From NCBI GenBank assembly GCA_019244165.1, contig JAFATA010000012.1, positions 22,912-86,911 of the forward strand: a stretch of 64,000 bases of DNA, given 5' to 3'. Below the pieces are notes generated by a model that did no database searches, was not told the origin of the DNA, and saw nothing but the letters and a program-made list of their open reading frames with translations. Positions 9,711 through 59,168 of this stretch are shown in pieces. The translations under genes and the position numbers were made by a program. How positions within the stretch are numbered: the stretch's first letter is position 1; each line of letters begins with the position of its first letter. Source of the DNA: Pseudonocardiales bacterium. Lineage in GTDB: Bacteria > Actinomycetota > Actinomycetes > Mycobacteriales > Pseudonocardiaceae.

Positions 9711-10025
9711 TCAGTTGCGCAGCGCCTGGCTGATCGGCGAGTAGCTCTGGTGCTCGGCCCCGTCGTTCTGCGCGCAGGTGGCCCCGGATTCCAGGATCCG
9801 CTCACCGATACTGGTGAGCGCCTCGCTGAGCTTGCCTGCGTCGGCTTGCCACCGCTGCATCAGTATCTGGAACGCGATCGCGGCCTGCCCTTGCCACGCC
9901 CTTGACAACGGCTCCAGCTGGTTGTACAGACGCGAAAGCTGAGCCTGCACGTTCTCGTTCACGGTGGCGACGTGCTGGGCCGCTGCCTGCGTCTGTTCGA
10001 ACTGGGCACCGAACTGCTGCGCCAT
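9711..10025 (-). CDS. WXG100-family (Esx) protein
   Basis: ATG at 10025 (MAQQFGAQFEQTQAAAQHV...) preceded by GGAGG. The WxG motif is in ...LSRAWQGQAAIAF.... It directly abuts the downstream esx gene. Confidence 0.8.
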   Translation of the reverse strand: MAQQFGAQFEQTQAAAQHVATVNENVQAQLSRLYNQLEPLSRAWQGQAAIAFQILMQRWQADAGKLSEALTSIGERILESGATCAQNDGAEHQSYSPISQALRN

Positions 10026-10162
10026 CTGCGGTGGCCTCCTTGACGTGATCGGGCGGGGTGGGACGACCGGCAACAACGTCGGGTGGGCCGGCGGAGCTCC
10101 GCTGGCCCACCCGATCATCTGTCGTTGTCCGGGACCTCCAGGGGGCGCAGGATAGCGGGTCC

Positions 10163-13040: not shown

Positions 13041-13916
13041 GGCTGCGGCTGCGTCGGCTTGGGCGGGTGCGGGCGCTGGTTGCGGCGGCATGCGCAGGAG
13101 GATCAGGATGATCAATGCGACGATCGGTGCGCAGATCAGGAGCAGGGGCGGCGCCTGCAGCATCACCAGCGCGGAGACGAGCAGGACGATGGTGATCGTT
13201 GGCCGGATGAGAACTCCGATGCTGCGAGTGGAGAATCGGGCGCCAAGGTAGACGCCGGGCAGCGCACCGAGCAGCAGGGAGCTGGTCAGGGCCAGATGGA
13301 CATCGCCGTAGTGCAGGTGAGCGACCGTGGCGGCGGCCACCAGCGGGACCGCTTGCACGATGTCGGTGCCGATGAGCTGGGCGGCCTGTAGCTCGGGGTA
13401 GACGACCAGCAGTGACGCGACGATCAGCGAGCCAGCGCCGACAGAGGTCATGCCGACGGCGAAACCGCCGATCGCCCCGATCATCATCGTAGGCAGCGGG
13501 CGGACCTCTGGCTGCCGGCGAGGATGCTCACTCTGGCGGCGGTCGAGAACCTGACGCAGGAGCGTCATCCCCACCGAGAGGCACAAGGTGATGCCGATGA
13601 ACAGCTTCAGCGCGTTCTCCATGCCCGGGGTGTGCCCGACCACACCGATGACCATCGCGCCGACGAGCGCCGCTGGCATCGAGCCGACCGCCAGCCAGCG
13701 CACAATTCCCCAGTGGACAGTGCGCTGTTGCATGTGCACGGCGGCGCCGAGGGGCTTCATGACCAGCGCGACGAGCAGGCCACTGGAGACTGCGGTCAGC
13801 GGTGAGACCTGGAAAAACAGCACCAGCATCGGTATGAGCAGTGCGCCACCGCTCATACCGATGAGACCGACCAGGACACCGATGAGCAGGCCCGTACTAA
13901 TAAGACCGATATCCAT
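13023..13916 (-). CDS. sulfite exporter TauE/SafE family membrane protein
   Basis: Polytopic membrane ORF with ...LIGVLVGLIGMSGGALLIPMLVLF... and an internal duplication typical of TauE. ATG at 13916 (MDIGLIS...); the track start is 13973. It overlaps the 3' end of the STAND gene convergently. Confidence 0.85.
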   Translation of the reverse strand: MDIGLISTGLLIGVLVGLIGMSGGALLIPMLVLFFQVSPLTAVSSGLLVALVMKPLGAAVHMQQRTVHWGIVRWLAVGSMPAALVGAMVIGVVGHTPGMENALKLFIGITLCLSVGMTLLRQVLDRRQSEHPRRQPEVRPLPTMMIGAIGGFAVGMTSVGAGSLIVASLLVVYPELQAAQLIGTDIVQAVPLVAAATVAHLHYGDVHLALTSSLLLGALPGVYLGARFSTRSIGVLIRPTITIVLLVSALVMLQAPPLLLICAPIVALIILILLRMPPQPAPAPAQADAAAASAEVP

Positions 13917-14068
13917 AATCAAGAGCACCCACCCGCTTTCCCCTCCGACCAACCCAATGGCCGAGGCCGACACGACGTGACAGGCATGGCCTGTTGATGA
14001 CGAGTCAAGTCCCCCAGTACTGCATAAAGATCAGTGCCGCATAAGGGCTGACGTGGCTCGAAGCACTC

Positions 14069-14098
14069 AATCAACCAAAGATAGATCAACCAAAGATA
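14069..14098. repeat. 2 x 15-bp tandem direct repeat in an AT-rich intergenic region
   Basis: aatcaaccaaagata / gatcaaccaaagata. A second pair, cgtaggtgagcggt x2, lies at about 14193-14220. Confidence 0.5.
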
Positions 14099-14363
14099 GC
14101 CCCATAGAATCATACAAATAAAGATGTGGCTCTTGAGGCCGAAGAGGCTCCTGCGGCTAGCGTGACGGTAGCTTCGGTAAGCGGTCGGTTGACGTAGGTG
14201 AGCGGTCGTAGGTGAGCGGTTGATCCGGTAGGTGGCTAGCGACCAGCGCTACCCTGACCATCCAGGGCTTGTGTCATGGGCATGCAACTTTTGCTTCCTA
14301 GCCTTACCGTCCACAGACAACGACACAGCGAGAGGATGAGCGGATGACTCACCGAGACCGCAC

Positions 14364-15281
14364 TTGCCGCCGGGAAACCGGGCTGGGCTTCGCCCCGGCA
14401 GGCGGGTTGTCGCGAGCCGACGCGTGGTGAGCAGCGCGGTGCCTCAGCGAGCCGGGCAACTCGTCGTCATCGGGGGTGCAGAGGACCACGCCGGCAGGGC
14501 CGTCATCCTGCGCCGGTTCCGCGACCTGTGCGGTGGTGAGCATGCCCGGATCGCCATCCTTGGGACCGCGACGATGATCCCCGCCGAGGTCGGTGAAGGC
14601 TATCTCAAGGCATTCCGGGCCCTCGGCGTCAAGGAGGTCGTGTTCCTGCCTCTGGCGTCCCGGGCAGCGGCGAGCTCGACCAAGACGATCGAGGTCCTCG
14701 AGGGAGTCGACGGAGTCTTCTTCACCGGGGGCTCTCAGCGGCGTATCACTGCCATCGTCGGAGGCTCGCGCGTGGACGCCTGGCTGCACCAGAAGCTGCA
14801 GCGGGGTTTGGTCATCGCCGGGACCAGCGCGGGCGCAGCGATGATGTCGAGCACCATGATCCTGGGTGACATCCTGGGTGACTCCGACACGATGCCCGCG
14901 ACATCAATCGTGTCACTCGGGCCTGGCCTGGGGTTCCTGCCGGGCGTGGTCATCGACATGCACATGACGGAGCGCCGGAGGCTGACTCGTCTGCTCGCCG
15001 CCGTAACCCGATTTCCCCACCACCTCGGGATCGGCATCGACGAGGACACCGCGCTGATCGTGGACGGCAACCGGTTCGAGGTCATCGGAGCCGGGACGGT
15101 CACGGTCATCGACGCTGGCGACGCGACCTCGATGAGCGGCCCGAACGGCGAGCGGCCCATCGCGCTGACGGGCATGCTCATTCACGTCCTGGCAGCCGGG
15201 TATGCGTTCAACCTCACCACCCGGTCGGTAGAGATCACCACAGGACCCGAGGCGGCACGAGGGTTGTCCCGGGCCTCGTAA
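14364..15281 (+). CDS. cphE: cyanophycinase (peptidase S51)
   Basis: It contains ...LVVIGGAEDHAG...ILGTAT...VFFTGGSQRRI...VIAGTSAGAAMMS... (Ser nucleophile context GTSAGA), typical of CphE. Confidence 0.85.
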   Translation: MPPGNRAGLRPGRRVVASRRVVSSAVPQRAGQLVVIGGAEDHAGRAVILRRFRDLCGGEHARIAILGTATMIPAEVGEGYLKAFRALGVKEVVFLPLASRAAASSTKTIEVLEGVDGVFFTGGSQRRITAIVGGSRVDAWLHQKLQRGLVIAGTSAGAAMMSSTMILGDILGDSDTMPATSIVSLGPGLGFLPGVVIDMHMTERRRLTRLLAAVTRFPHHLGIGIDEDTALIVDGNRFEVIGAGTVTVIDAGDATSMSGPNGERPIALTGMLIHVLAAGYAFNLTTRSVEITTGPEAARGLSRAS

Positions 15282-15342
15282 GGGACTCGTCAAGAACCCC
15301 AGGGTCAAGAGACCCAGTGGCGTTACCTTGTGAGCGAGCGCC

Positions 15343-15594
15343 ATGGCCGCCGAGGCGGCAGCGTGGGGCCGTGGCGGAATCAGCGCGGTGCATCGAGCCA
15401 CTGGCGCGTCGCGGACAACGATTCGACGCGGTATGGCCGAACTCGCCGACACCGAGTCGACCCAGTCCGCTCACCGAGTCCGGGCGCCGGGCGCTGGCCG
15501 CAAGAAAGCCAAGGTCGCCGAACTCGGCGGGGCCGTGATCGAGGTCAACGCCGAACCTGGCTTCCGCATGCACCTCGCTCGCTGGCGAAGGTGA
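15343..15594 (+). mobile_element. fragment of an ISAzo13-family transposase N-terminus (IS remnant)
   Basis: ...WGRGGISAVHRATGASRTTIRRGMAEL...HRVRAPGAGRKK... matches my memory of the HTH N-terminus of ISAzo13-type transposases. Only about 60 of about 480 aa are present, and I saw no inverted repeats. Confidence 0.5.
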
Positions 15595-15649
15595 ACGGCG
15601 CGACGCCGCCGGTCCACTGCTCGATTTGCTCTTCCCGCCAGGTGCGCCC

Positions 15650-15861
15650 AGCCGCATCCCCATCGTGGCCGTGACCGGGACCAACGGTAAGACGACAACC
15701 GTGCGGATGATCTCCCACATCCTCCGCGGGACGGGCAGGATGGGGGATGACCTCGACGGACGGTATCTACGTCGACAACCGCCTGATCCTCAAGGCCGAC
15801 GCGTCGGGGCCGAAGTCGGCTCGGATGGTCCTGGCGCACCCGCGGGTTGAGCTGGCGGTGA
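15650..15861 (+). pseudogene. cphA: cyanophycin synthetase fragment (Mur-ligase P-loop region only, frameshifted)
   Basis: RIPIVAVTGTNGKTTTVRMISHILRGTGRMG in one frame continues as MTSTDGIYVDNRLILKADASGPKSARMVLAHPRVELAV in another. This is about 75 aa of an enzyme of about 900 aa, bounded by the IS remnant and by the Uma2 gene. Confidence 0.6.
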
Positions 15862-15871
15862 TTTGTAGTTA

Positions 15872-16468
15872 TCACCCTGGTGGGTGGGTGGCGGCGGCGA
15901 GCTGGGCAAAGTCAAGATCTACCTTGAACGGCTCAGCCAGACACAGGACCTGGCCCGACTCGGAGGAGGTGACCTTGACGTAGTGCCCCCGGTGCAATCG
16001 GTAGGCCGCCCCGCTCGGCTCCGGACCGCCCAGCTCGATCCGCAGGTAATGCTCGATGCCCGCAGCCGCGTACAGTTGCGGCTTGATCGCACGATCGGCC
16101 GCAACACTACCCGGGCTGACGACCTCGACGACCATCGCCACCTCAGCGGGATCCCAGACCGCCCGGTCGAGCCCGGGCCTGGTCACCACGACCAAATCGG
16201 GGATCAGGATCCGGCCCGGCGCCACCCGGACGTTGATAGCTTCCAGCACCTCCAGCCCGCTCGGTGCCGCCGTGCCTAGGGCATACCAAAGCTGGGATGA
16301 CAGCCGCTGGTGCCGGCTGCCGGCTGACGGGCTCATGAGCAGCCCACCGTCGAGCAGCTCGACGCGACGGTCCTCGGGCAGCGCAAGATAGTCCTGCTCC
16401 GTCCACGGCCCGACGCGGTCAAGCAGGACCGACTGGCCGGACTGGACAGGCTGGGCAGCCGATGACAC
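15872..16468 (-). CDS. Uma2-family (DUF820) putative endonuclease
   Basis: It contains ...WTEQDYLALPEDRRVELLDGGLLMSPSAGSRHQRLS...PDLVVV...VVEVVSPGS...DRAIKPQLYAAAGIEHYL..., the Uma2 PD-(D/E)xK-like pattern. Confidence 0.85.
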   Translation of the reverse strand: MSSAAQPVQSGQSVLLDRVGPWTEQDYLALPEDRRVELLDGGLLMSPSAGSRHQRLSSQLWYALGTAAPSGLEVLEAINVRVAPGRILIPDLVVVTRPGLDRAVWDPAEVAMVVEVVSPGSVAADRAIKPQLYAAAGIEHYLRIELGGPEPSGAAYRLHRGHYVKVTSSESGQVLCLAEPFKVDLDFAQLAAATHPPG

Positions 16469-16546
16469 CGACAGCTCACCTCCGTGCGTTCGAGGGCCAT
16501 CACCATGGTCGCATGCTGCCGGAGGACCCTGACAGTTTTCGCCGGC

Positions 16547-16801
16547 CTAGCCGGGCGGGTTCGCCAAGACGCGCAGGTAGCGGTTGCACTCGCGACAGCT
16601 GCCCGTCAGGCCGCGGGGGTTAAGGGCGAGGCCGATGACCGTGATCGTCTGGCCGCACCAGGAGCGGTGTCGGGAGCCCAGGGTGGGGAAGCTGGGCGCT
16701 GAGACCAGGTGCGAGACCGTGCCGCGGCCGGTGATTGCCCACCCCCAGTAGTACGCGCGGGAGCCCTCGGCGCTGCCGGTGCAGCGGGTCAGGTGGGTCA
16801 T
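16547..16801 (-). CDS. hypothetical 84-aa Cys-containing protein
   Basis: The ATG at 16801 is preceded by AAGGAG at optimal spacing. The sequence is MTHLTRCTGS...HRSWCGQ...GSCRECNRYL. I recognise no family. Confidence 0.5.
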   Translation of the reverse strand: MTHLTRCTGSAEGSRAYYWGWAITGRGTVSHLVSAPSFPTLGSRHRSWCGQTITVIGLALNPRGLTGSCRECNRYLRVLANPPG

Positions 16802-17287
16802 CGATGGGGCTCCTTGGCGGGGAGGCGGGCCGTGGTGGTGAGGCCCTGCGGTCAAACACTGTGGTCAGGCGCTGGCCCGCGCGATCCGGCGCTGCGAAGG
16901 ACTGAATCGCGCGGGCCAGCCGTGTCGGTGCACAGCGGGCACGCCGCGCACCTGAGGAGGTCACCTTGCGGTCAAGAGCACTGCGGGCGGGGAGTGACCA
17001 CCCGGTGCGCCGCACAGATGACCAGCCGAGCGGCTGGGGCGCGGGGAGACCGGTTGGGGTGGAAACCCAGTGAGCGGGGCCGACTCGGGGGCCGATCCCG
17101 CCCACCGGGCGGCTGGGGGTGTCCCGCCCTCACCCGGTGCGGGGCGACGGTTAGGATGGACATCCATCTTGTACTCCCTACGAACCACTTGGCTACCCGG
17201 ACGCTATAAAGTGGAAGTACAAGTTGTAAATGACCTCTTCGGGTGAACGCCGTCTCCACGCCACGACCGCACCGAAAGGATCCGCAG

Positions 17288-18184
17288 ATGACCACTCCGG
17301 CCACCGCGATCGGCATCCAGCGCCGCCAGCTCGGCAACGAGCTGCGCAGACTCCGCGAGGACGCCGGGCTCATCCAGGAGCAGGCCGCCGCGAGCCTGGG
17401 CAAGGCGGCGAACATGATCAGTCGGGTGGAGAACGGGAAGGTCGGCATCTCCAAGGCTGATCTCGACGAGCTGCTACGGCTCTACCAGGCCTCGGCGAAG
17501 GACGCGCTGTGGTGCCGGGAGCTGGCCACCGGCGCGCGGCGCCGGCGGACCCGGGCCAGCGCGGAGCCCACGCTGTACCTGGGGCCGAAGTGGTTCCGCG
17601 CGTTCCGCGACTTCGAGCAGGGCGCCTCACAGATCATGCAGGTTGCCTCGGAGATCGTGCCCGGCAACCTGCAGACCGAGAACTACACCCGGGCGATGGT
17701 CAGCGGCCGGGGCAGCTACCCGGACTACCAGACCGTTGAGGACACCGTGCGGGTGCGCCGCGAGCGGCAGGCGCTGCTGACCCGGGAGCACGCCGCGCAG
17801 TTCACCTTCGTGCTCAGCGAGTCCGCACTGCGCCGGGTGATCGGCGGCTCGAAGGTGATGGCCGAGCAGCTGCGCCACCTGGCCGAGCTGGCCCTGCTGC
17901 CCACGGTGGACATCCAGGTCATCCCGTTCGACACGCTGTCCTACGAGCCACTCAGCTACGCCTTCACCGTGCTGCGGTTCGATCACGACTCGGCCACCGA
18001 CATCGTCTACATCGAGATGTACGACAATGGGATCTACCTGGACAAACCACCCGAGGCAGTGCGCCGCTACGTCGAGCTGCAGCGCCGGCTGCAAGCGATC
18101 GCCCTGGGACCAGTGGAGTCGCGTAACTTCATGGTAGAACTGGCCGGCCAGTTCGCTGCGAAACCAGACGAAGATTGGGGCTAA
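17288..18184 (+). CDS. XRE-family HTH regulator with DUF5753-type C-terminal domain (WhiJ-like)
   Basis: ATG at 17288 after AAAGGA. The HTH is LGNELRRLREDAGLIQEQAAASLGKAANMISRVENGK. It is followed by two DUF397 genes, the usual partnership. Confidence 0.85.
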   Translation: MTTPATAIGIQRRQLGNELRRLREDAGLIQEQAAASLGKAANMISRVENGKVGISKADLDELLRLYQASAKDALWCRELATGARRRRTRASAEPTLYLGPKWFRAFRDFEQGASQIMQVASEIVPGNLQTENYTRAMVSGRGSYPDYQTVEDTVRVRRERQALLTREHAAQFTFVLSESALRRVIGGSKVMAEQLRHLAELALLPTVDIQVIPFDTLSYEPLSYAFTVLRFDHDSATDIVYIEMYDNGIYLDKPPEAVRRYVELQRRLQAIALGPVESRNFMVELAGQFAAKPDEDWG

Positions 18185-18188
18185 CCCC

Positions 18189-18401
18189 ATGTCACCCGCA
18201 TCATTCCAGGAAGGGGCCTGGTACACGTCCAGCTACAGCAACGGTGGGCAGAACGACTGCGTCGAGATCAACCACTCGCTTGCGGGTCAGGTAGGAGTGC
18301 GTGACTCCAAGCTCGGCACCACCAGCCCAGTGCTGGCCATGCCAGCGGCCCAGTGGGCCTGCCTGCTGACCGCAGTCCAGCACGGCACGCTGCCCGCCTG
18401 A
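18189..18401 (+). CDS. DUF397 domain protein (BldB-like), copy 1
   Basis: MSPASFQEGAWYTSSYSNGGQNDCVEINHSLAGQVGVRDSK... is the DUF397 signature (W.KSS.S....CVEV...VRDSK). Confidence 0.85.
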   Translation: MSPASFQEGAWYTSSYSNGGQNDCVEINHSLAGQVGVRDSKLGTTSPVLAMPAAQWACLLTAVQHGTLPA

Positions 18402-18441
18402 CCCCCGCCCCTCCCCCACCCGGGGTGGGTCCACCGCAATC

Positions 18442-18503
18442 GCCATTCGGAACCAAATAGCGGTCCCAGACCCCTCGCCGACCGCTATTTGGTTCCGAAT
18501 GGC
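18442..18503 (+). promoter_or_regulatory. perfect 24-bp inverted repeat with a 14-nt loop between the two DUF397 genes
   Basis: gccattcggaaccaaatagcggtc (18442-18465) pairs with gaccgctatttggttccgaatggc (18480-18503), an exact reverse complement. It is AT-richer than its surroundings and ends 15 nt before the ATG of copy 2. Confidence 0.6.
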
Positions 18504-18518
18504 AACGAGCGCAACCGC

Positions 18519-18731
18519 ATGTCACCTGCATCGTTCCAGGAGGGGGCCTGGTACACGTCCAGCTACACCACCGGCGGTCAGAACGACTGCGTCGAGGTCA
18601 ACTACTCGCTTGAGGATCAGGTGGGAGTGCGTGACTCCAAGCTCGGCACCACCAGCCCGGTGCTGACCACGCCAGCGGCCCAGTGGGTCTGCCTGCTCGC
18701 CGCGGTACAGGAGGGCGCTCTCGACGCCTGA
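18519..18731 (+). CDS. DUF397 domain protein, copy 2 (tandem paralogue)
   Basis: MSPASFQEGAWYTSSYTTGGQNDCVEVNYSLEDQVGVRDSK... is near-identical to copy 1 over most of its length. Confidence 0.85.
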   Translation: MSPASFQEGAWYTSSYTTGGQNDCVEVNYSLEDQVGVRDSKLGTTSPVLTTPAAQWVCLLAAVQEGALDA

Positions 18732-18783
18732 CCGGTAGGGACACCTCGCCATGCGGGACAAAACGGAGGACGCGTGTCTGTGT

Positions 18784-19200
18784 ATGACACCCGGCCGCTA
18801 TTGTTCTCGGGTGACCGCTGCATCCGCCGGATCGCCGCAGCCGGGCCGGCCCCCGTTCGTGGACGCGACGCCAGCGCAGATCCGTGGCGCCCTCACACCG
18901 GAGGACGTCACGGAGTTCGACCGCCAGTGGCGCGCGGTCATGAACCAAGCCACGGACCGACTAGACCTCTCGGAGGTGCACCAGGTCCTGGAAGCGTGGC
19001 GCCGGGTCGCCTGGCTCACCGTGGCCAGAGGCCCGCACGGGTACCGGCGGACGATGGCCTCGGCCGAACAGCGCCTGCGCACCGGTGAACGCGGCGCTGG
19101 TAGCGTGCCCTGGCACCAGCTTCAAGCGAGGCTCGGTCTGTCCGAGGGAGCACCTCAGCATGAGCTACGAGATCGACGTCGATCTCCAGGCGCAGGATGA
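18784..19200 (+). CDS. putative antitoxin partner of the downstream ParE/RelE-like gene (DUF6247-like from memory)
   Basis: The ORF contains ...TPAQIRGALTPEDVTEFDRQWRAVM...LSEVHQVLEAWRRVAWL.... It overlaps the toxin start by about 40 nt. The start is uncertain (track start 18751). Confidence 0.45.
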   Translation: MTPGRYCSRVTAASAGSPQPGRPPFVDATPAQIRGALTPEDVTEFDRQWRAVMNQATDRLDLSEVHQVLEAWRRVAWLTVARGPHGYRRTMASAEQRLRTGERGAGSVPWHQLQARLGLSEGAPQHELRDRRRSPGAG

Positions 19201-19411
19201 CATCGCCGCGCTGCCCGCGAGGGCGCTGTTGACCCTCGCCGAGGCGATGACCATCCTGGAACTGACCCCATGGAACGGCCGCCCGATCAATTCGGCCAAC
19301 CCCGACGGTGCCGTCCGGACGTTAGCCTTCGGCTCCGCCGGGATGCTGACCTATCTCGTGCTCGATGACGAGAAGCGCGTGGACGTCCTGATCGTCGTCT
19401 GGGCGAGCTGA
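19160..19411 (+). CDS. RelE/ParE-family toxin
   Basis: ATG at 19160 after GAGGGAG. The 83-aa product MSYEIDVDLQAQDDIAALP...VRTLAFGSAGMLTYLVLDDEKRVDVLIVVW fits the ParE/RelE fold pattern. Confidence 0.7.
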   Translation: MSYEIDVDLQAQDDIAALPARALLTLAEAMTILELTPWNGRPINSANPDGAVRTLAFGSAGMLTYLVLDDEKRVDVLIVVWAS

Positions 19412-19635: not shown

Positions 19636-21138
19636 GTGCGCCCGTATCGAGCCCGGCCGGCCGCTGGCCGGGGGTGTGCTGGGCCGCTACCACCGGTGAG
19701 GGCACTCACCGGTCATCGCCGCACCCCGCTGGTGGCCCCGCTGATGACCGCTGCCCTCGCCCTGTTGTGCCTGGCCGGACCGGCGTGGCCGGTGGCCGCC
19801 CAGCCGGGCAACCGGCCGCCCGGCGTGCCACCCCCGGTTGACCTCACTGCCCTGCCCACTCCGGCCAGCGTGAACACCCTGCCTTACCTCGTGAGCACCC
19901 CGGCTGCCCAGCAGACCGGGCCGCCCACCCGACAGGCACCCTGCCAGCAGCCAGTCACGAGCGGCGCGCAGGACCTTGTGACCGAGCCGACGGCGCAACG
20001 ACGGCTGCGGATCCGCAAAGCCCAGGAGTACGCAACCGGACGCGGCCAGCGGGTCGCCGTGATCGACAGCGGGGTGCAGCCGCATCCCAGGCTGCTCGGC
20101 AGATTGATCGATGGCGGGGACTACATCGAGAATCGCAGCGGCCTGTTCGACTGCGACGGCCACGGTACCGCGGTCGCCGGTCTGATCGCCGCAGCTCCCG
20201 ATGCGCGCACCGGATTCGTCGGGGTGGCCCCCGCCGCGGAAATCCTGGCTATTCGCCAGGGCAGCACCTTCTACTCGGTACCACTGCGCCAGCTCACCAC
20301 CGGCCAGCAGACCAGCTCCAGCGCCGGCGACACCAGGAGCATGGCGGCCGCGGTGATGCGCGCCGTACAGCTGGGCGCGACAGTGATCAATATTTCGGAA
20401 GCCGCGTGTTTCCCGGCTGAGCCCAACCAGGTCAACGCGCCGGACCTGCAGGCCGCCGTGCACTACGCGGTAGAGCACAACGTTGTCGTGGTGGTGGCCG
20501 CCGCGAACGTCAGCAATATCTGCAAACAGAACAGCCCCGGGGTAGTCACCACGATCTCCTCGCCAGGCTGGTTCGACGCTGACGTGCTCACGGTCGCCGC
20601 GACGTACGACGATGGCCAGCCAGCGGACTTCTCGATTCGTGGACCGTGGGTCGATGTGGCCGCCCCGGGCACCGGCGCGGTGTCGTTGGCGCCCGGGCGC
20701 GCAGGGCTGACCGCCGGACTCCTCGACGCCCGCAGTCAAGCCTATCCGCTCAGCGGAACCAGCTTCGCCGCTCCCTACGTGGCCGGGCTAGCGGCGCTGG
20801 TCCGGGACCGGTTCACGAACCTGAGCGCGCGTCAGGTGATCCATCGTATCGAACAGACCGCCCGGCATCCCGCGGGCCGGCGCGAGCGCAACGAGGACGT
20901 TGGCTACGGCATGATCGACCCCGTTGCCGCGCTCACCGCGGTCCTGCCCGAAGAGCGCAGCCCGCAGGCCCAGCCCGTGCTGCCGAGTAAACGGGACGGT
21001 CTGCGCAGCACGCCGCGCCCGAACAGCACGCTCGCACTGGCCGGCTCTGCCGCAGCGCTCGGGGCGCTCGGACTGGCCTTGATGGTCGTCCAGACCGTCA
21101 AACGGCAGCGGCGGTGCCCCCACCAGCCGCGGCATTGA
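19636..21138 (+). CDS. mycP: mycosin-type S8 subtilase (type VII secretion-associated serine protease) with a C-terminal membrane anchor
   Basis: The catalytic triad contexts are VAVIDSGV, DCDGHGTAVAG and LSGTSFAAPYVAG. The signal-like N-terminus is ...LMTAALALLCLAGPAWPVAA. The C-terminal TM plus basic stop-transfer is LALAGSAAALGALGLALMVVQTVKRQRR. The true start may be 19696 or 19744. Confidence 0.9.
   Translation: MRPYRARPAAGRGCAGPLPPVRALTGHRRTPLVAPLMTAALALLCLAGPAWPVAAQPGNRPPGVPPPVDLTALPTPASVNTLPYLVSTPAAQQTGPPTRQAPCQQPVTSGAQDLVTEPTAQRRLRIRKAQEYATGRGQRVAVIDSGVQPHPRLLGRLIDGGDYIENRSGLFDCDGHGTAVAGLIAAAPDARTGFVGVAPAAEILAIRQGSTFYSVPLRQLTTGQQTSSSAGDTRSMAAAVMRAVQLGATVINISEAACFPAEPNQVNAPDLQAAVHYAVEHNVVVVVAAANVSNICKQNSPGVVTTISSPGWFDADVLTVAATYDDGQPADFSIRGPWVDVAAPGTGAVSLAPGRAGLTAGLLDARSQAYPLSGTSFAAPYVAGLAALVRDRFTNLSARQVIHRIEQTARHPAGRRERNEDVGYGMIDPVAALTAVLPEERSPQAQPVLPSKRDGLRSTPRPNSTLALAGSAAALGALGLALMVVQTVKRQRRCPHQPRH
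21003..21112 (+). repeat. mycP 3'-terminal segment (intact copy) that is duplicated at 24672-24749
   Basis: See the partner repeat at 24672-24749. This copy encodes ...RSTPRPNSTLALAGSAAALGALGLALMVVQTVKRQR of MycP. Confidence 0.8.
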
Positions 21139-21435
21139 CCGGACGGAGGGCGTGGTGGCTTGGGTCCTGATCTGTGGTTGCTGCTGCGTCTGGGCTGCGC
21201 TCCCTGTCCCGAACTCGACACCAGGGTTGTTCGGGCGGTGATGGGCAGCGCCGCACACAATCGATCACCTCCTCGCCGGGCCGCATCCTGATATCCACCG
21301 TTGTCGCCGGTGCACCCCGGTGGGGATACGCATATCCATGCACTTTAACTGTGAGCTGGGATAACTACGGCTTACGACCCGTCCCGGCATGTAACGACCG
21401 GCAGTGCGTGGCAGATATAAAAGACACGGGAACGG

Positions 21436-22146
21436 ATGAGCCCGCCGCACGGGGGGAGCCACACGGAAATGATCATGATACCGACCGTTTTCCGCTTTGT
21501 CCGTTCTTGTACGTGCCGCAGTCTGCGGCGTTCGTCTTCTCTCACTCTACGTAATGACAGCAGCCGAGGGACTACCCATCCGAGAGGGACCAGTAGGCCT
21601 CTGCGTTGCAGTCGGTTTAAGCGGTTCGCTGACCGACGAGCTGGCGGCCGAGACGGCCGCAGCAGGATTCCCCGTTACTCGGAGCAACCAGAACCCACAC
21701 CCTACGTCAAAGAGCTGGTCGACGAGTACGCCAAGCAGGCTGCTGCCGAGCGCGAGGCCATGGAGAGAGATACCGCTCCCTGGCGCCAAGACTTAGCCCA
21801 ACTCATCGACAAGCTACGCCATGAAGTGCACCCCGACCCTGCAGTGCGGGCGTGGCGACAGCGAGAGGCCTCCCAAGAGAAGCGGCGGCTCGAAGCGGCG
21901 ATCGCGAGTCGACGCAGGCAGTACGTCGATCGGCGGAACCAGCTGGCCGCGCACACCTGTGTCCGCATCGAGACCTACTGGACCAGGTTGGTACAGGTTC
22001 ACCCGGACGGCGAGCTGCTGACCAACTGGATCAACGAGTGGAAACCCCCGCAGCTGGCCGGTCCCCTGGGAAAGCTGATCGAGATCGACGAACTGAACGG
22101 GAGCGACGAACCCAGCGAGCTCGACGGACCATCGGAGATCAACTGA
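21436..22146 (+). CDS. hypothetical charged/helical (coiled-coil-like) protein with an acidic tail; 5' end uncertain
   Basis: The convincing coding sequence starts at about 21680: ...PYVKELVDEYAKQAAAEREAMERD...RRLEAAIASRRRQYVDRRNQLAAH...ELNGSDEPSELDGPSEIN. Upstream of that, another frame (21554-21680: MTAAEGLPIREGPVGLCVAVGLSG...) looks more protein-like, so a frameshift or a later start is possible. The stop lies 1 nt before the next gene. Confidence 0.5.
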   Translation: MSPPHGGSHTEMIMIPTVFRFVRSCTCRSLRRSSSLTLRNDSSRGTTHPRGTSRPLRCSRFKRFADRRAGGRDGRSRIPRYSEQPEPTPYVKELVDEYAKQAAAEREAMERDTAPWRQDLAQLIDKLRHEVHPDPAVRAWRQREASQEKRRLEAAIASRRRQYVDRRNQLAAHTCVRIETYWTRLVQVHPDGELLTNWINEWKPPQLAGPLGKLIEIDELNGSDEPSELDGPSEIN

Positions 22147-22147
22147 T

Positions 22148-23371
22148 ATGCACAGTGCTCGCACGATCCACCGCTGGTGGCGCCGAGAAAGCTTCCACAT
22201 GGAGGTCACAACGGTGGCGCCACCTAGCTTGTTCACTCACTTGATGCCACAAAGGCAGATTACCCGCTTGGAGCAACGGATGCGCCGAGCCGAGGCGGAT
22301 GCCCGGGGGTGGGTGGCCGAGCTGTCTGGCGCGCTCGACGTCGGTTCCGGGGGTGTGTTCGACGGGCGACTGGACGGGTTAGAGGTCAAATGGCACGCGC
22401 AGGACGACCGCGAGCACAACGCCTACCTGTCCGAGCTGGGCAAGCGGCTCGCCAAGGCGCAAGGTGCCATCGTTTTCGCCGAGAAGACCGTCGAGCAAGC
22501 CAAGGAGGACCAGGAACGTGCCGCGCGGGACTATGAAGGGGCACGGGTACGACTCGGCGGCGAGCCACGGAGTCGCCAAGGCAAGCCGACCGGAGAAACC
22601 GAGGGGAGCGCATCTCAACTCGAACCGCTGATGTGGCTGTTCGTGCTCGGCGCGGTGGCTGGTGATATCGCAGTGTTCTACAACGTCTTGGCGAGGTTGT
22701 TCCGAAGCAATCCGGTGTTAGTTGGAGCCTGTACCGTCGGCTTCGTGGCCGCCGCGATCGGGATTTGTCATCTTATCGGGATCGGGTTGCAGGAGAGGCA
22801 GTCCGCCGTCCGGAGCCGCAGCGATGCGCTGCTCTGGGCGAAAGTGGTCGCCTGGCTCGCCCTCGGGTGTTTGGCGTTTTTCGTCCGCCTCCGTGTCGGT
22901 GTCAGTTCTTCGGGCACTCTACAAAATATGGGGAGCTCAGGTTTCGGGCTGACGCCGGCCACGAACGTTGATCGGGACCTGCTCGCCGCGCTCTTTTTCG
23001 CTGGCCTGTACCTCGTTAGTGGGCTCGTCGCCATCACGGCATCTTTCAGGATGTTCAACCCCGCTGCCCGAGCTTTTCGGCACGCGTCACGCAATGTCAA
23101 GAAGCTCAAAAAGGCCGAGCGGAACACCAAGAACGCCCAAGCGCAGCTCGTGGAGCAGATCGAGCTCAAAAGTGCGGTCGACGCCGAGGTGGCTCGTGCC
23201 ACAGAGCGGCGGAGGGGAGTTCGTTACTGCACTGAAGCCAACATTGTCAGCCTTAAATGGTTCGTACGCAATCTGATAGCCGCCGAGCTGAACGACCCCA
23301 CAGCGCATGACATTTTGATGAAGGACGCGCCCAAGATGAGAACGTACCCCGAACCCGAGCCCACGTCATGA
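22148..23371 (+). CDS. hypothetical membrane protein: charged helical N-terminus, four TM helices, charged helical C-terminus
   Basis: 407 aa. The hydrophobic helices are LMWLFVLGAVAGDIAVFYNVL, VLVGACTVGFVAAAIGICHLIGIGL, LLWAKVVAWLALGCLAFFVRL and LLAALFFAGLYLVSGLVAITASF. They are flanked by K/E/R/A-rich segments. It has an ATGA overlap with the next gene. Confidence 0.65.
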   Translation: MHSARTIHRWWRRESFHMEVTTVAPPSLFTHLMPQRQITRLEQRMRRAEADARGWVAELSGALDVGSGGVFDGRLDGLEVKWHAQDDREHNAYLSELGKRLAKAQGAIVFAEKTVEQAKEDQERAARDYEGARVRLGGEPRSRQGKPTGETEGSASQLEPLMWLFVLGAVAGDIAVFYNVLARLFRSNPVLVGACTVGFVAAAIGICHLIGIGLQERQSAVRSRSDALLWAKVVAWLALGCLAFFVRLRVGVSSSGTLQNMGSSGFGLTPATNVDRDLLAALFFAGLYLVSGLVAITASFRMFNPAARAFRHASRNVKKLKKAERNTKNAQAQLVEQIELKSAVDAEVARATERRRGVRYCTEANIVSLKWFVRNLIAAELNDPTAHDILMKDAPKMRTYPEPEPTS

Positions 23372-24606
23372 TCGGACTGAGTAGGGTTTTTGCCGCCGGC
23401 ACCGCCCCTCTCCTGGCCATCGCGCTGGTGGCGTGCAGTGGGGGCGGTAACGCCCACTCGGGAGAATTCGTGATCGGCGGGGAGTGCGCCATGCCGGCCG
23501 GGCCACTTGCCGTGGCGATATCCCGGCGGGCGAACAGCCCCGGCGACCTACCCGTTCCGGTGAGCCAGATCGTGCAGCGGTTCATCACGCGTATCCCGGC
23601 GGGGGTGACCGGACCGACCCTGAGCTTGATCAACGTCGATGGTCGCTCCCGTGTTTATCAACACGGGAACTTCTTCTCGGACTCCGGGAACGATGAGGGT
23701 CTCCAAGACGACCAACAGAAGTTCCTGGCCGGGTTCACCAGCACCGCAGCCGCGATGCGCGCCGCAGAGCCCGAGGTGGATGTCCTGGGTGCGCTGGAGG
23801 AGGCGGGAAACGCCGCGGGCGCGGGCCGACCGGCGGCCGGCACCGTCGTCCTCGTCGACTCCGGTCTGTCCACAACCGGCGCGCTGGACTTCAGCCAACC
23901 GGGCATGCTGGATGCTCCAGCCGATGACCTGATCTCCTCCCTGCGGAGAACCAAGGCATTGCCCCATCTGAGCGGGTTGACCGTGGCTCTGGTCGGAGTC
24001 GGGGAGGTTGCCCGCCCGCAGCAGAAGCTCGGCACTCGTCAGCCGGGCCTCGCCGAGCTGTGGACACAGATCGCCAAAGCCAGCGGGGCGGCCTGCGTCA
24101 CGTCGGTCGAGGTGACGCGCTCCGACGACCCGGTCGATGGCCAGGTCAAGCCGGTGAAACTCGTCCCGGTCCCCTCTCCTGTGGTGGTTCATCCTCACGG
24201 GATCGTTCTCCTTGACGCAGGCGAGGTTCGATTTGAGGAGGGGCAGGCGGCCTTCCGCGACCGGAAAGCCGCGCGCACAGCGCTGGAGCCGATCGCCGCC
24301 CCGCTCAAGAACCAACCGTCGCACCACCTGCGGCTCATTGGCACCACCGCGCGCTGGGGTTCCCGGGACTACCAACTCGACCTGGCTAGGCGGCGGGCTG
24401 AGACCGTCAAGCAGGAGCTGGTCGGGCTCGGCGCCAACCCGAACCAGATCGAGACTCGCGGCTTAGGCAGCTATTTCGCGCAGTACGTCCCGGACAATGG
24501 CCCTGGCGGCGTGCTCTTACCGGGGCCAGCGCAACAAAATCGAACGGTCCGGATCGAGTCCTGCGATCCCACCTGCCCACCCGATCCAGCGGCCCCACCG
24601 GCATGA
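23368..24606 (+). CDS. lipoprotein with an unassigned central domain and a C-terminal OmpA/MotB-type peptidoglycan-binding domain
   Basis: The signal plus lipobox is MIGLSRVFAAGTAPLLAIALVAC-SGG. The C-terminus LRLIGTTARWGSRDYQLDLARRRAETVKQELVGLGANPNQIETRGLG...NRTVRIE fits the OmpA-like pattern. Confidence 0.75.
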   Translation: MIGLSRVFAAGTAPLLAIALVACSGGGNAHSGEFVIGGECAMPAGPLAVAISRRANSPGDLPVPVSQIVQRFITRIPAGVTGPTLSLINVDGRSRVYQHGNFFSDSGNDEGLQDDQQKFLAGFTSTAAAMRAAEPEVDVLGALEEAGNAAGAGRPAAGTVVLVDSGLSTTGALDFSQPGMLDAPADDLISSLRRTKALPHLSGLTVALVGVGEVARPQQKLGTRQPGLAELWTQIAKASGAACVTSVEVTRSDDPVDGQVKPVKLVPVPSPVVVHPHGIVLLDAGEVRFEEGQAAFRDRKAARTALEPIAAPLKNQPSHHLRLIGTTARWGSRDYQLDLARRRAETVKQELVGLGANPNQIETRGLGSYFAQYVPDNGPGGVLLPGPAQQNRTVRIESCDPTCPPDPAAPPA

Positions 24607-24622
24607 CCGTCCATCCGGGGGC

Positions 24623-25921
24623 TCATGGATGTTTGTGCGCGTTCTGGCGGCGCAACGCGCGGGTTTGTTCGGCGCAGCACGCCGCCTCCGAACAACACGC
24701 TCGCGCTGGCCGGCTCTGATGGTCGTCCAGACCGTCAAACGGCAGCGGCAGCGCCCCGGTTAAGATCGATGGCGCTGGGGAGCGTCCATTGCTGGGTGAG
24801 CCGACCCAGAGCGTGTAATGCTGTGGCGTGATCGTCAGGCCGAACTGGTCAATGCCAGGGCGCCCAGCGTTATCCCAGTCAGCCAGGATCGGGTCGATCT
24901 TGGCCCACAGATGCCGGATGCCGGTTTCGTGAACCCGAGCAGGTCCGCCCGAACGCGGCTCGACGCGGACCCATGAGTTACTGGCTGGATGCCACCAGCG
25001 GTAATCCACCACCGTGCCGTCCTCGCGGTGCACAAACATCAGCTGGCTCCGCTCGGCGATCAAAGAAGCCAAGAACGAGGCAACGGTGAAATCTAAGCTC
25101 CCTGGTAGGTCAGCGTCGTACTGCCGTTCCGCGACGCCGCCGGTAACCTCGAAAACCCGCCCACTCGTGGACGTGGGTAGCTCGCCTTCGGTGTGCAGCG
25201 CCATGAATCCGGCCTGGCCGCAGAACTGACCAGATACCATGTCACCGTTGCCGCGCCGGAGAGCGACCAGGCCACGGCTGACATTGGCGACGATCAACCC
25301 GCCAGGCGCCAACTGCTGGATCCAGGCTGCCGGGATGCGGTCCACTCCGCAAGTAGCGATGATCCGGTCGAAAGGGGCGCGTTCGGCCGCGCGACGGGCA
25401 CCGTTGCCGGTCAGTACCGTCACCGGGAATCCGGCATCGTCGAGGACCTCCTTCGCTGCCTGAGTGAGACGGGGATCGACGTCGATGGTCGTGACGTTGT
25501 CCGGGCCGAGTCGATGGGCCAGCAGGGCGGCGTTGTATCCCGTTCCGGTACCAATTTCCAGTACCTTGTGTCCGTCGTGGACATCCAGCAGGCCCAGCAT
25601 GTGCGCCATGAGGGCAGGCTCGGTGCTGGACGAGATGGCCACGCCATTGTCCGCGTAACGTGTGATCAGCGCTTCGTTCCGGTAGGCCGCCGCCAACCAT
25701 CGTGGACGTTCGGCCGGATCCGAGCCGTCGTACCAGCTCGCCGCAGCCGGACCGGGCTGCCCGGGCGCGCTGATCGCGAAACGCGGCGCGAAGAGGTGCC
25801 GAGGCACGCTCTGCCAGGCACGCCGCCAAGCGGGGTCGTTCAGGAGCCCAGCAGCGGCCAGCTCATCGGCCAGTTGCTCCCGGTAGTCGGCGGCCATGTC
25901 ATCGGTGACGGTGGTATTCAC
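24623..25921 (-). CDS. PIMT-like O-methyltransferase of an ATP-grasp RiPP system (TIGR04188-like)
   Basis: The SAM motif is VLEIGTGTGYNAALLA. The N-terminus ...AADYREQLADELAAAGLLNDPAWRRAWQSVPRHLF is typical of this family. The GTG at 25921 overlaps the ATP-grasp stop (GTGA); an ATG at 25897 is also possible. The last about 45 codons read antisense through the mycP-remnant junction. Confidence 0.85.
   Translation of the reverse strand: MNTTVTDDMAADYREQLADELAAAGLLNDPAWRRAWQSVPRHLFAPRFAISAPGQPGPAAASWYDGSDPAERPRWLAAAYRNEALITRYADNGVAISSSTEPALMAHMLGLLDVHDGHKVLEIGTGTGYNAALLAHRLGPDNVTTIDVDPRLTQAAKEVLDDAGFPVTVLTGNGARRAAERAPFDRIIATCGVDRIPAAWIQQLAPGGLIVANVSRGLVALRRGNGDMVSGQFCGQAGFMALHTEGELPTSTSGRVFEVTGGVAERQYDADLPGSLDFTVASFLASLIAERSQLMFVHREDGTVVDYRWWHPASNSWVRVEPRSGGPARVHETGIRHLWAKIDPILADWDNAGRPGIDQFGLTITPQHYTLWVGSPSNGRSPAPSILTGALPLPFDGLDDHQSRPARACCSEAACCAEQTRALRRQNAHKHP
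24672..24749 (+). repeat. decayed direct duplicate of the mycP 3' end
   Basis: gcgcagcacgccgcctccgaacaacacgctcgcgctggccggctctg + atggtcgtccagaccgtcaaacggcagcggc aligns with 21003-21049 plus 21082-21112. I counted about 74/78 identical by eye. A 32-bp stretch (21050-21081) is missing, which breaks the frame. Confidence 0.8.
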
Positions 25922-26904
25922 GGAGTCCAGCCCTCCAACAGGTCGGCGATAGCATGGGCGATCGGCAGATCGGTCGCCAACTCGATCCAGCCCCATTGCC
26001 CGTTAGGGCTGACTTCGAGGAAATACCAGCATCCTTCGGGGTCAACAATAAATTCGAGTGCGCCGTACGCAAGCCCCAGGGAGGTCATGAGCTGATTCAC
26101 CCCGTCGGAAATCGGTCGCGGCACGGTCGCCGGCTGGTAGGTGAGGCTGCCATAGTCCGACCGCCAATCGACACGAGTCTTGTCTGAAGACGCGTCGATC
26201 CGGGCCGCAAATTGCTGTTGGCCGACGACAATCAGCCGCACCTCGAATTTCTTGGGCACCCGAGACTGAAATAAATGAGCAGTGCGGGCTACGCCGTCGG
26301 TGATCTCCTCGGCGGTAACCGGACTTGTGTACAGGGCAACGGCTTTTCTCTCCGCTCCGTCCGGCGAGCCTCGGAGAGGCTTGTAGATAGCACCGTCCTT
26401 TTGGGCGGTCACGAAGGCCCGAGCCGCCTTGGGATCGTTGGTGATGAACGTGTCCGGGATAGCGAGACCGCACGCTACGGCGGTGGCTAACTGGAGCGGC
26501 TTGCTTTCGGCAATGGCATTGCAGTGCGGGTGGTTCACCCACCGACACCGCAACGCACTAAGAACGCCACCAAAACCAGCGAGGGCCTCCCGCTCCGTCC
26601 ATGCACGGTCACTGGTCGGCATCGCTGGGTGCAGGACAAACCGGGTAGGCCGCCGGTACCATACCGACCGTATATCAGCCAGACATACAGTGTGATGATC
26701 GGTGGACAAAAGGCCGTGCCAGCCGTTCCGCCCTCCTCCGATCCGAGCCTGCAGCACTAGTGTTTCCGGAAACTCGGCTACATCTAGACGGACCACCGGA
26801 ACGCGCCGCGAACTTAGTTCGCAGATGACTAAATCGGCAGTGGGATCAAAACACTGGGTCAGCACCAGCACAGGTGACTTAGTCACGTGGTCAGTCTGTT
26901 CCAT
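25918..26904 (-). CDS. ATP-grasp ribosomal peptide maturase (SAV_5884/TIGR04187-like)
   Basis: It contains ...PVLVLTQCFDPTADLVICELSSRRVPVVRLD...IRSVWYRRPT...VNHPHCNAIAESKPLQLATAVACGLAIPDT...GALEFIVDPEGCWYFLEVSPNGQWGW.... It is coupled to the methyltransferase downstream and the small precursor upstream. Confidence 0.85.
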   Translation of the reverse strand: MEQTDHVTKSPVLVLTQCFDPTADLVICELSSRRVPVVRLDVAEFPETLVLQARIGGGRNGWHGLLSTDHHTVCLADIRSVWYRRPTRFVLHPAMPTSDRAWTEREALAGFGGVLSALRCRWVNHPHCNAIAESKPLQLATAVACGLAIPDTFITNDPKAARAFVTAQKDGAIYKPLRGSPDGAERKAVALYTSPVTAEEITDGVARTAHLFQSRVPKKFEVRLIVVGQQQFAARIDASSDKTRVDWRSDYGSLTYQPATVPRPISDGVNQLMTSLGLAYGALEFIVDPEGCWYFLEVSPNGQWGWIELATDLPIAHAIADLLEGWTP

Positions 26905-27091
26905 CGACCACCGAATCGGGCCAGGACTGCATGTCCATAGTCGTCGTAATGGTACAGTACAGTGTGCTTTTCATCGACGGCTCGTCGATGAATGGGGTTC
27001 CCCCGGGCATCACTGTTATCTGGCGCACCGGATCGTAGCTGGCCCCACCCGGGGCGATCGCCTGCACTTGAGGCACCGAGACTCGGGTCAA
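26891..27091 (-). CDS. putative graspetide precursor peptide (TIGR04186-like)
   Basis: 66-aa ORF with a TTG start, immediately upstream of the ATP-grasp gene. The leader contains ...ASYDPVRQITV.... The C-terminal core is Thr/Ser- and Asp-rich: ...STLYCTITTTMDMQSWPDSVVDGTD. An AT-rich promoter-like region lies upstream (27092-27235). Confidence 0.6.
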   Translation of the reverse strand: MTRVSVPQVQAIAPGGASYDPVRQITVMPGGTPFIDEPSMKSTLYCTITTTMDMQSWPDSVVDGTD

Positions 27092-56829: not shown

Positions 56830-57006
56830 GAGGAGCCTGTCGGTGTCGGGAACGGGACGTCGAGCCGTGCTGCCGCTGACTTTATCAGGATTGATCACAC
56901 GCGGTTCTTCCCAGCCCAGCAGGGAAACTCGCGCTCAGTCGTGCTGCCGTGATCGGGGTACCGTTCTATCCACCATCAGGAGGGGTAGCAGGCGGGGGAG
57001 GAACAC

Positions 57007-59156: not shown

Positions 59157-59168
59157 CAGCGTTCAGCG

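Follow-up and report, generated by a model that had tools for sequence, protein, structure and literature searches.

Several described systems join a membrane protein to a partner that reaches the cell wall. In Zorya (ZorA/ZorB), which also occurs in defence islands, and in the MotAB and TolQR-Pal stators, a multi-pass membrane protein with long cytoplasmic helices and an essential-looking acidic residue in the membrane is paired with an OmpA-like peptidoglycan-binding partner. The tripartite YfiB-YfiR-YfiN system (TpbB; Pseudomonas and E. coli) uses the OmpA-like lipoprotein YfiB to sense the envelope and control a membrane protein, and LpqB-MtrB likewise has a lipoprotein that informs a membrane protein about the envelope. 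Kiwa (KwaA/KwaB) combines a membrane sensor of four transmembrane (TM) helices with a cytoplasmic partner and is thought to detect phage at the envelope. Two further operon types, the von Willebrand factor A (vWA)/OmpA-like membrane-associated operons around FtsZl1 (Makarova and Koonin 2010, PMC2875224) and the iSTAND ternary systems with OmpA effectors (Kaur et al. 2020, PMC7159879), are predicted to form membrane complexes of vWA-domain, OmpA-like and uncharacterised TM proteins, Actinobacteria included, and both have been proposed as membrane-remodelling or conflict systems (PMC2875224, PMC7159879). Here we analysed a 64,000-nt stretch of DNA from a Pseudonocardiales bacterium (JAFATA010000012.1), called the window throughout, to which all coordinates refer unless another locus is named, and describe a three-gene operon within it, g1, g2 and g3, that belongs to a large, unnamed, envelope-spanning three-component module of Actinomycetota.

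The trio shares the envelope-spanning logic of Zorya and the stators, yet it has no sequence or fold homology to them: its peptidoglycan binder is a vWA-like lipoprotein without a TM helix, its Asp lies on the 4-TM subunit, and partners of the ZorC/D nuclease or helicase type are missing. YfiB appears among the sequence and fold matches of the g3 OmpA domain, but it lacks a vWA-like domain; its partners are a periplasmic protein (YfiR) and a diguanylate cyclase (YfiN), whereas g1 and g2 carry neither GGDEF nor any other enzymatic domain, and the resemblance is limited to the OmpA-like domain. The FtsZl1 and iSTAND operons differ in their FtsZ-like, GTPase, MoxR, STAND or kinase components, which the trio lacks; here the vWA-like and OmpA-like parts are fused in one lipoprotein, and its metal-ion-dependent adhesion site (MIDAS) is non-canonical. 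As in Kiwa, a 4-TM membrane protein is coupled to a cytoplasmic partner, but Kiwa has no lipoprotein or peptidoglycan-binding component and a PADLOC scan gave no KwaA/KwaB homology. Judged by homology, the trio belongs neither to the stator/Zorya group nor to YfiBNR or LpqB-MtrB, the only shared element being a generic OmpA-like domain. Nothing in the literature searched describes the module or mentions its accessions.

A widespread three-gene module of Actinomycetota

The trio lies on one strand directly behind mycP, the gene of the type VII secretion system (T7SS) protease mycosin (Table 1). A 1-nt spacer separates g1 from g2 (TGA-T-ATG) and an ATGA overlap joins g2 to g3, in line with the original prediction, made by reading the DNA without database searches, that the three genes are co-directional and translationally coupled. 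Close relatives are few: among 5.8 billion clusters we found 13 close homologues of g2, 21 of g3 and 3 of g1, and when 185,579 species representatives were scanned by a pattern-based method, which reaches close relatives only, the g2 subfamily turned up in just one. The corresponding metagenome scan, again confined to close relatives, returned three short loci. A profile of the g3 central domain run against 1.84 billion representatives collected 1,912 clusters (50% identity, E<=1e-3), with 1,283 at E<=1e-10. The majority of this family are lipoproteins of 380-420 aa, and its hosts include Salinispora arenicola, Pseudonocardia oroxyli, Virgisporangium aurantiacum, Lentzea guizhouensis and Spirillospora. 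The trio family is large rather than orphan, and it is specific neither to mycP nor to the T7SS.

Gene content holds together across this range. Close homologues always occurred in the same operon with the same 1-nt and 4-nt junctions, set in other neighbourhoods (loci L001/L002 and L003/4/7/8/10), and more distant versions of the operon were found at L005 and L006, the latter a 4-gene variant. Every distant locus examined had a diverged g2 homologue adjoining the g3 homologue, and g1 homologues (BLASTP E 1e-5 to 1e-33) stood beside g2/g3 except at L019, where none was identified. In close loci g1 lies directly upstream of g2; at the Salinispora locus L014 it is divergent. Overall, the gene set and the g2-g3 order are conserved in 10 independent Actinomycetota contexts (the window, L001/L002, the L003/L007 group, L005, L006, L014, L016, L017, L018 and L019). 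Their neighbourhoods are unrelated. The trio is a widespread, unstudied module and not an ESX component.

The dN/dS of the trio against its closest relative is 0.65-0.82, with few substitutions behind the estimate, a value that would fit accessory genes under fast evolution. Long-term constraint is nonetheless shown by the key residues described below, which are conserved over deep divergence.

Some loci carry further genes next to the module. The Micromonosporaceae modules of Salinispora (L014 9179-10072) and Virgisporangium (L017 7275-8057) are accompanied by an extra membrane-anchored protein with a canonical DxSxS vWA domain; the two proteins are 41% identical, and their genes flank the module on opposite sides, one following it and the other preceding it. 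The Pseudonocardia oroxyli module is directly preceded, on the same strand, by genes for two large proteins without a Pfam match (722 and 330 aa; L016 2882-6172), with nothing recognisable beyond them; these may be additional module components.

Three proteins across cytoplasm, membrane and wall

The g1 product is a charged protein of the cytoplasm and is probably helical. It has no TM segment and no signal peptide, and its last ~20 residues are acidic, which agrees with the original prediction of a probably cytoplasmic protein with an acidic tail. Two motifs are conserved, PLRYG..KRF.DRR..G.DG near the N-terminus and R..TYW.RL...HP.GE near the C-terminus, the latter followed by the acidic tail. 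The gene can start at 21436 (236 aa) or at 21469 (225 aa), as called in a 95.8%-identical relative; the first ~55 residues are neither conserved nor codon-biased, and the coding signal in GC content at third codon positions (GC3) runs from ~21620 on. Pfam and NCBIfam gave no match to g1 at or above curated cut-offs (only a sub-threshold DUF6269), PADLOC, PHROGs and PDB sequences gave no significant match, and hhalign detected no relationship between g1 and g2.

Four hydrophobic segments were found in g2 (residues 164-182, 189-207, 228-246 and 278-296), flanked in the AlphaFold2 (AF2) model by an N-terminal helical hairpin (~35-137) and a C-terminal helix (305-381). The mean predicted local distance difference test score (pLDDT) is 65 overall, ~90 in the helical arms and ~50 in the TM region. 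These data fit the earlier description of a 4-TM protein with long helical N- and C-terminal arms, and the positive-inside rule would place both termini in the cytoplasm. Alignments at 27-40% identity revealed three invariant residues, D173 in TM1, H208 in TM2 and R247 at the outer end of TM3, and the outer loop is rich in Gly and Ser with an SGFG motif. The protein is frequently split, with one gene for the N-terminal cytoplasmic domain and one for the 4-TM part plus the C-terminal helix. No Pfam match at E<=0.01 was found for g2, and no significant one in NCBIfam, PADLOC, PHROGs or PDB sequences; in a Foldseek search of the model against PDB the matches were all to generic coiled coils, for instance those of TTYH, chemoreceptors and alpha-pore-forming toxins (best E 0.035). 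A resemblance to holins (Phage_holin_3_6, the actinobacterial Holin-X) was rejected, scoring 17.1 bits against a cut-off of 28.4 in one of nine family members. EME1 (E 0.003), the only weak match in PDB sequence-profile searches of g1, g2 and the g3 central domain, was set aside as implausible.

The third protein is a lipoprotein. Its signal peptide ends in the lipobox LVAC with the acceptor at C23 (MIGLSRVFAAGTAPLLAIALVAC), it has no other hydrophobic helix, and C23 is invariant in 19 homologues. By pattern, the lipobox recurs in 107 of 146 wider relatives, the remainder having TM anchors or being fragments. These features are those of a bacterial lipoprotein. The AF2 model (pLDDT 79) comprises a central alpha/beta domain (~34-270) and a C-terminal OmpA-like domain (~289-400, with GTTARWG...RRRAE), and the lipobox and the OmpA domain had both been recognised beforehand. 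The latter matches PF00691 at 41.1 bits (cut-off 27.2) and, by Foldseek, the C-terminal domains of Pal, MotB and OmpA (E 4e-9 to 1e-6). R343, the Arg of the RA motif, is invariant. The position of the Asp of the (H/N)TD motif, which canonically contacts diaminopimelate, is Ala328 (GTTARWG versus GNTDERG and GYTDSTG), and it is likewise occupied in nearly all close relatives.

The original prediction could not place the central domain, and by sequence this stands: no Pfam or PDB sequence match was obtained, Pfam VWA gave nothing in 13 family members at E<=1, and hhalign against an integrin I-domain and the Salinispora VWA_2 protein returned probabilities below 1%. Structure comparison went further. 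Foldseek against BFVD, the search in which the likeness was seen (the PDB search being dominated by OmpA-like matches), found several viral VWFA-domain proteins (E 1e-4 to 1e-2, probability 0.95-1.0) aligned over 210-230 columns of the domain, a moderate match at 6-8 A root-mean-square deviation. The order of elements, b1-a1-b2-b3-a2-a3-b4-a4-b5-a5-b6, is consistent with the vWA fold, and because the model matches VWFA-domain proteins over ~220 columns, the domain has a vWA-like fold, in which a canonical MIDAS and a match to a vWA sequence profile are both absent. The MIDAS position reads S52-R-R54-A-N56-S57 instead of DxSxS, and a D164-S-G loop is conserved after strand b4, which argues for a putative metal-independent, Arg-containing binding site.

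Topology and domain evidence support the earlier view of a cassette spanning cytoplasm, membrane and wall. Searches of Pfam, NCBIfam, PADLOC, PHROGs and PDB bore out that none of the three proteins falls in a named Ecc/Esp, defence, secretion or stator family; strong profile matches of all three to characterised families were sought and not found, a generic OmpA match in g3 being the only one. The g3 protein is 100% identical to an NCBI entry annotated 'OmpA family protein [Pseudonocardiales bacterium]'.

Single-chain relatives of g3 extend the picture. P0084 carries an N-terminal Xre-type helix-turn-helix (HTH) domain (HTH_31), one TM helix and a vWA-like plus OmpA-like ectodomain; this is the layout of a one-component transmembrane sensor, and the ectodomain is therefore likely used as an input module. 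P0081 and P0053 share the TM helix and the ectodomain behind an uncharacterised N-terminal cytoplasmic extension. By architecture, P0084, P0081 and P0053 look like a new class of wall-sensing one-component regulators. P0040, encoded on a contig of 2.3 kb, resembles a g2-g3 fusion, but a frameshift artefact in the ATGA overlap probably accounts for this.

Insertion of the operon at the 3' end of mycP

Positions 21121-24757 hold a three-gene operon of foreign origin that was acquired horizontally. As originally noticed, the trio lies between the intact 3' end of mycP and a decayed direct copy of it, whose extents we corrected to those in Table 1. The copies agree at 82 of 89 positions (92%), the second carrying a single 32-nt frameshifting deletion, and they share an exact 33-nt core (21080-21112 = 24717-24749), the probable crossover segment, which matches exactly twice in the window and in 0 of 100 shuffles. 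Similarity breaks off sharply at 21120/24757. On the 3' side of copy 1 the new sequence CAC CAG CCG CGG CAT TGA (21121-21138) supplies the last five codons and the stop of mycP, whose product now ends in ...LMVVQTVKRQRRCPHQPRH*; the same present end can be written ...KRQRRCPHQPRH*, and the inferred ancestral end, read from copy 2, is ...KRQRQRPG*. The insertion gave mycP a rebuilt end of five new codons, and the old end persists, in decay, at the right border.

Table 1. Positions of the trio, the mycP repeats and the adjoining graspetide-type genes in the 64-kb window
Feature	Position	Strand	Evidence or content
mycP (mycosin, S8 protease), insertion target	19636..21138	+	TIGR03921 4.8e-110, PF00082 3.3e-38
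Direct repeat copy 1, intact mycP 3' end encoding the C-terminal TM anchor	21000..21120	+	
Cassette left end	21121..21435	+	last 5 mycP codons and stop, then leader
g1, charged cytoplasmic protein, probably helical, 236 aa	21436..22146	+	homologues beside g2
g2, inner-membrane protein, 407 aa	22148..23371	+	AF2 model, hydropathy, alignments
g3, lipoprotein, 412 aa	23368..24606	+	AF2, Foldseek, PF00691, alignments to Pal and YiaD
Direct repeat copy 2, decayed and frameshifted mycP 3' remnant at the cassette right border	24669..24757	+	
Inferred original last mycP codon and stop, GGT TAA	24758..24763	+	frame-1 translation, junction alignment
Graspetide-type PIMT-like methyltransferase, neighbour outside the module	24623..25996	-	TIGR04188 1.6e-93
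ATP-grasp maturase of the graspetide cluster	25918..26904	-	TIGR04187 3e-124
Candidate graspetide precursor ORF, Thr/Asp-rich end ...TLYCTITTTMDMQSWPDSVVDGTD	26891..27091	-	ORF reading

The arrangement indicates a probable Campbell-type insertion two codons before the mycP stop, by one recombination event within the last ~120 nt. Such a junction layout would be the signature of a circular molecule that carried a mycP-3'-like segment and recombined by a single crossover in the identical core; the insertion was either site-specific or homology-driven. A 95.8%-identical relative (L009), known from a 3.7-kb assembly contig that starts and ends within the repeat, has the same structure, the same remnant and the same 32-nt deletion, so the insertion is older than the split of these strains. 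Its repeat has a longer identical core, its mycP ends in ...KRQRQRPHQLRH*, and a ~64-nt indel distinguishes its non-coding leader upstream of g1 (L009 162-224 versus window ~21243-21251).

The direct repeats at the 3' end of an intact target gene are those of an integrative element or genomic islet, in which the integrase is here absent. Actinomycete integrative and conjugative elements (AICEs) offer the nearest parallel: they too insert at a gene 3' end that is regenerated, with direct repeats, an exact core within a longer similar stretch and a preserved target frame. They differ in their target, a tRNA gene instead of the protein-coding mycP, and in their content, the insert here being 3.6 kb without an integrase, excisionase, replication or transfer gene. 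Around the trio in other loci, neither flanking repeats nor conserved non-coding ends were found.

Composition tells a similar, if modest, story. The module was expected to be richer in AT than its core flanks, and its GC content is indeed lower than that of the whole window, 0.642 versus 0.670, which puts it at the 11th percentile of 3.5-kb windows, with GC3 of 0.74-0.79 in the trio against 0.82-0.90 in core genes (truA, glmM and rpsI). Horizontal acquisition, claimed in the original prediction, is supported by the flanking mycP repeats with their sharp right-hand junction, by the lower GC and GC3, and by the presence of the same trio in unrelated neighbourhoods. The low-GC tract extends past the trio to ~28.7 kb, across a neighbouring cluster for a ribosomally synthesised and post-translationally modified peptide (RiPP). 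The leader upstream of g1 (21139-21435, 297 nt) is AT-richer (GC 0.623); an Rfam scan of the whole window, leader included, matched no family, and a promoter and terminator scan was uninformative.

The cassette sits in a variable interval between rplM-rpsI-glmM and truA-rplQ that also holds a WXG100 pair, mycP, a NB-ARC/TPR protein, a Uma2 nuclease, Xre/DUF5753-DUF397 and DUF6247 pairs, the graspetide-type cluster and further HTH genes. The WXG100 pair lies beside rplM/rpsI (9402-10118), 9.5 kb from the full-length mycosin. Conflict-type genes are plentiful in two tracts of the window (10485-19411 and 53923-63276): the NB-ARC/TPR protein, the Uma2 nuclease, Xre/DUF5753 with DUF397, DUF6247 with a small partner open reading frame (ORF), DUF222 and an Eco57I-like methylase fusion (1,016 aa). 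Two overlapping ORFs at 49479-53230 (- strand) resemble one STAND NTPase gene broken by a frameshift or an assembly error, 51824-53230 encoding Trypsin_2 and the first nSTAND1 half and 49479-51851 the second nSTAND1 half and WD40 repeats.

Immediately right of the trio lies the graspetide-type RiPP cluster (24623-27091, - strand), whose pairing of a methyltransferase with an ATP-grasp maturase suggests an aspartimide-forming graspetide. The TIGR04188 match of the methyltransferase stops at residue 393 of 457, and the last ~55 residues of the ORF are read-through of the mycP remnant in antisense, no stop being met until 24623. A second gene for a methyltransferase of the protein isoaspartyl methyltransferase (PIMT) type (37299-38513, + strand; PCMT 2.1e-30) is distant from the first and may be part of another RiPP or lanthipeptide-type cluster.

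Proposed role and alternatives

Five of the 10 contexts carry recognised conflict or mobile-element genes within 10 kb. At L001 a Wadjet JetA2 gene (717 bits) precedes the module by ~8 kb, and an EACC1-caspase-WD40 pair follows it at 0.5 kb; in Pseudonocardia oroxyli (L016) a type III CRISPR-Cas system with a reverse transcriptase-Cas1 (RT-Cas1) follows immediately downstream, and at L019 McrBC lies 0.5 kb downstream, followed by a DruE helicase (1,588 bits). The Salinispora arenicola module (L014) sits on an integrated element with a TIR_2 protein, a large serine recombinase and Replic_Relax, and at L018 the neighbours are a PNP_UDP effector, NUDIX, DUF2637 and a group II intron. As the module is patchy, mobile and repeatedly near defence systems, a conflict function is its most likely role. 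We put a probability of roughly 0.4 on the trio being a new envelope-spanning sensor-effector module that acts in anti-phage or anti-mobile-element defence or exclusion.

If so, the products of g1, g2 and g3 would form one complex across the envelope. Tethered by its lipid to the membrane and by its OmpA-like domain to the wall, g3 would serve as an extracytoplasmic sensor of wall-associated events such as phage adsorption, wall breaching or wall damage, and would contact or signal to the Gly/Ser-rich outer loop of g2. The output of g2 might be the opening of an ion or proton path through its Asp/His TM bundle, collapsing the membrane potential, or else a conformational change in its cytoplasmic helical bundle, to which g1 could bind as regulator or output. 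Extended to the whole ~1,900-cluster family, the proposal becomes more speculative: we consider it rather doubtful that all of these loci make up an unrecognised, Actinomycetota-wide, envelope-anchored immunity in which the lipoprotein senses phage at the peptidoglycan and gates an Asp/His 4-TM channel, leading to abortive infection or a block of DNA entry, on a mobile cassette able to target the mycP 3' end.

Several observations weigh against a conflict role. The neighbourhood sample is small and non-random, 10 contexts without a control set, and no clear defence gene is adjacent at L003/L007, L005, L006, L017 or in the window. PADLOC-DB 2.0 gave no match for g1, g2 or g3 (E<=0.1) or for their counterparts at L019 (E<=1e-5). 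Neither experiment nor homology connects the trio with any defence protein, and it contains neither an enzyme nor an obvious killing domain. The trio was not found in plasmid (72,556 records), phage or IMG/VR collections. Between the repeats lie only g1, g2 and g3, none with a recombinase domain, so that no recombinase or integrase is present there. The g2 channel is conjecture because the TM region is modelled at a pLDDT of only ~50, and with Ala328 in place of the canonical Asp, peptidoglycan binding by g3 is a prediction from its fold family.

The alternative that survives best is an envelope module without a defence role, possible but on balance unlikely, acting as a wall-to-membrane tether or in envelope-stress signalling in the manner of YfiB-YfiR-YfiN or LpqB-MtrB; it would signal or stabilise the condition of the peptidoglycan in growing hyphae, under desiccation or under antibiotic stress. 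An OmpA-like lipoprotein is the hallmark of the family, the family is large, the HTH-fused single-chain relatives suggest ordinary transcriptional signalling, and some contexts are metabolic or regulatory: sigma/anti-sigma genes with DsbA/VKOR (L005), ABC/FtsX genes with two-component systems (L017) and GH77 (L003/L007). Such a function sits less easily with the patchy distribution of the g2 subfamily in the species scan (limited to close relatives, as said above), with the lack of a conserved chromosomal position and the secondary insertion of the trio here, with its repeated placement beside defence systems and mobile elements, and with the weak purifying selection between close strains.

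Improbable, in our judgement, is that the trio is cargo of AICEs that serves the element itself, through entry or surface exclusion directed at related elements or through aid to intramycelial spread. The large serine recombinase and Replic_Relax beside the Salinispora arenicola module, the DUF2637 and NUDIX genes at L018, which are typical of AICEs, and the att-like direct repeats at a gene 3' end that bound the trio in the window would all fit. Transfer and replication genes, however, are absent from most contexts, the plasmid records searched hold no homologue, and no tra or spd gene lies between the window repeats.

Very improbable is a divergent ion-driven stator-type motor of the MotAB, TolQR-Pal or ZorAB kind, with g2 as ion-conducting rotor or stator ring and g3 as peptidoglycan anchor. 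The original prediction had pointed to stator-like or Zorya-type logic while remarking that a MotB-type TM Asp plug is missing. The remark holds for g3, although g2 does carry an invariant Asp in TM1 and an invariant His in TM2. The likeness is an analogy only: an OmpA-like partner goes together with a membrane protein whose TM Asp is invariant, and the long cytoplasmic helices of g2 recall the ZorA tail. No homology was found. The g2 protein lacks a Pfam match to MotA_ExbB (PF01618) at E<=0.01 and a PADLOC match to ZorA at E<=0.1, and the top 50 Foldseek PDB matches (all E>0.03) include no MotA, ExbB or ZorA structure. The OmpA-like domain is on the partner as in a stator, but a MotA-type subunit is not found and the Asp sits on the multi-pass subunit instead of on a TM helix of the partner; as a lipoprotein without a TM helix, g3 would be unable to form the plug or Asp-bearing helix inside a 5:2 ring.

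Least credible of all is an accessory ESX or T7SS component acting with mycP: the trio lies directly downstream of mycP in the window and the 4-gene variant at L006 is 6 kb from WXG100 and EccC genes, but these are the only two of the 10 contexts with a T7SS gene within 10 kb, the mycP end that received the trio was there before the insertion, no T7SS (Ecc/Esp) model in Pfam or NCBIfam matches g1, g2 or g3 (only the neighbouring mycP is matched), and the scanned ORFs, most of the larger ones of the 64 kb, gave no T7SS match apart from mycP and the WXG100 pair, with no eccB, eccC or eccD among them; the T7SS of the window appears reduced to a remnant.

For the biology of these bacteria, the insertion demonstrates that cargo DNA can integrate at the 3' end of a T7SS protease gene. 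The invariant Asp/His pair in the membrane part of g2 gives a direct handle for mutagenesis. Three linked protein families are defined by the trio even if its role proves to lie in envelope stress; two have no detectable relatives of known function, and the lipoprotein family, of ~1,900 clusters, is currently annotated only as 'OmpA family protein'. With a role in defence or exclusion, the trio would be a further mechanism, one that senses the wall and acts at the membrane, in Gram-positive mycelial bacteria, which include antibiotic producers and relatives of pathogens and whose phage immunity is far less explored than that of Proteobacteria.

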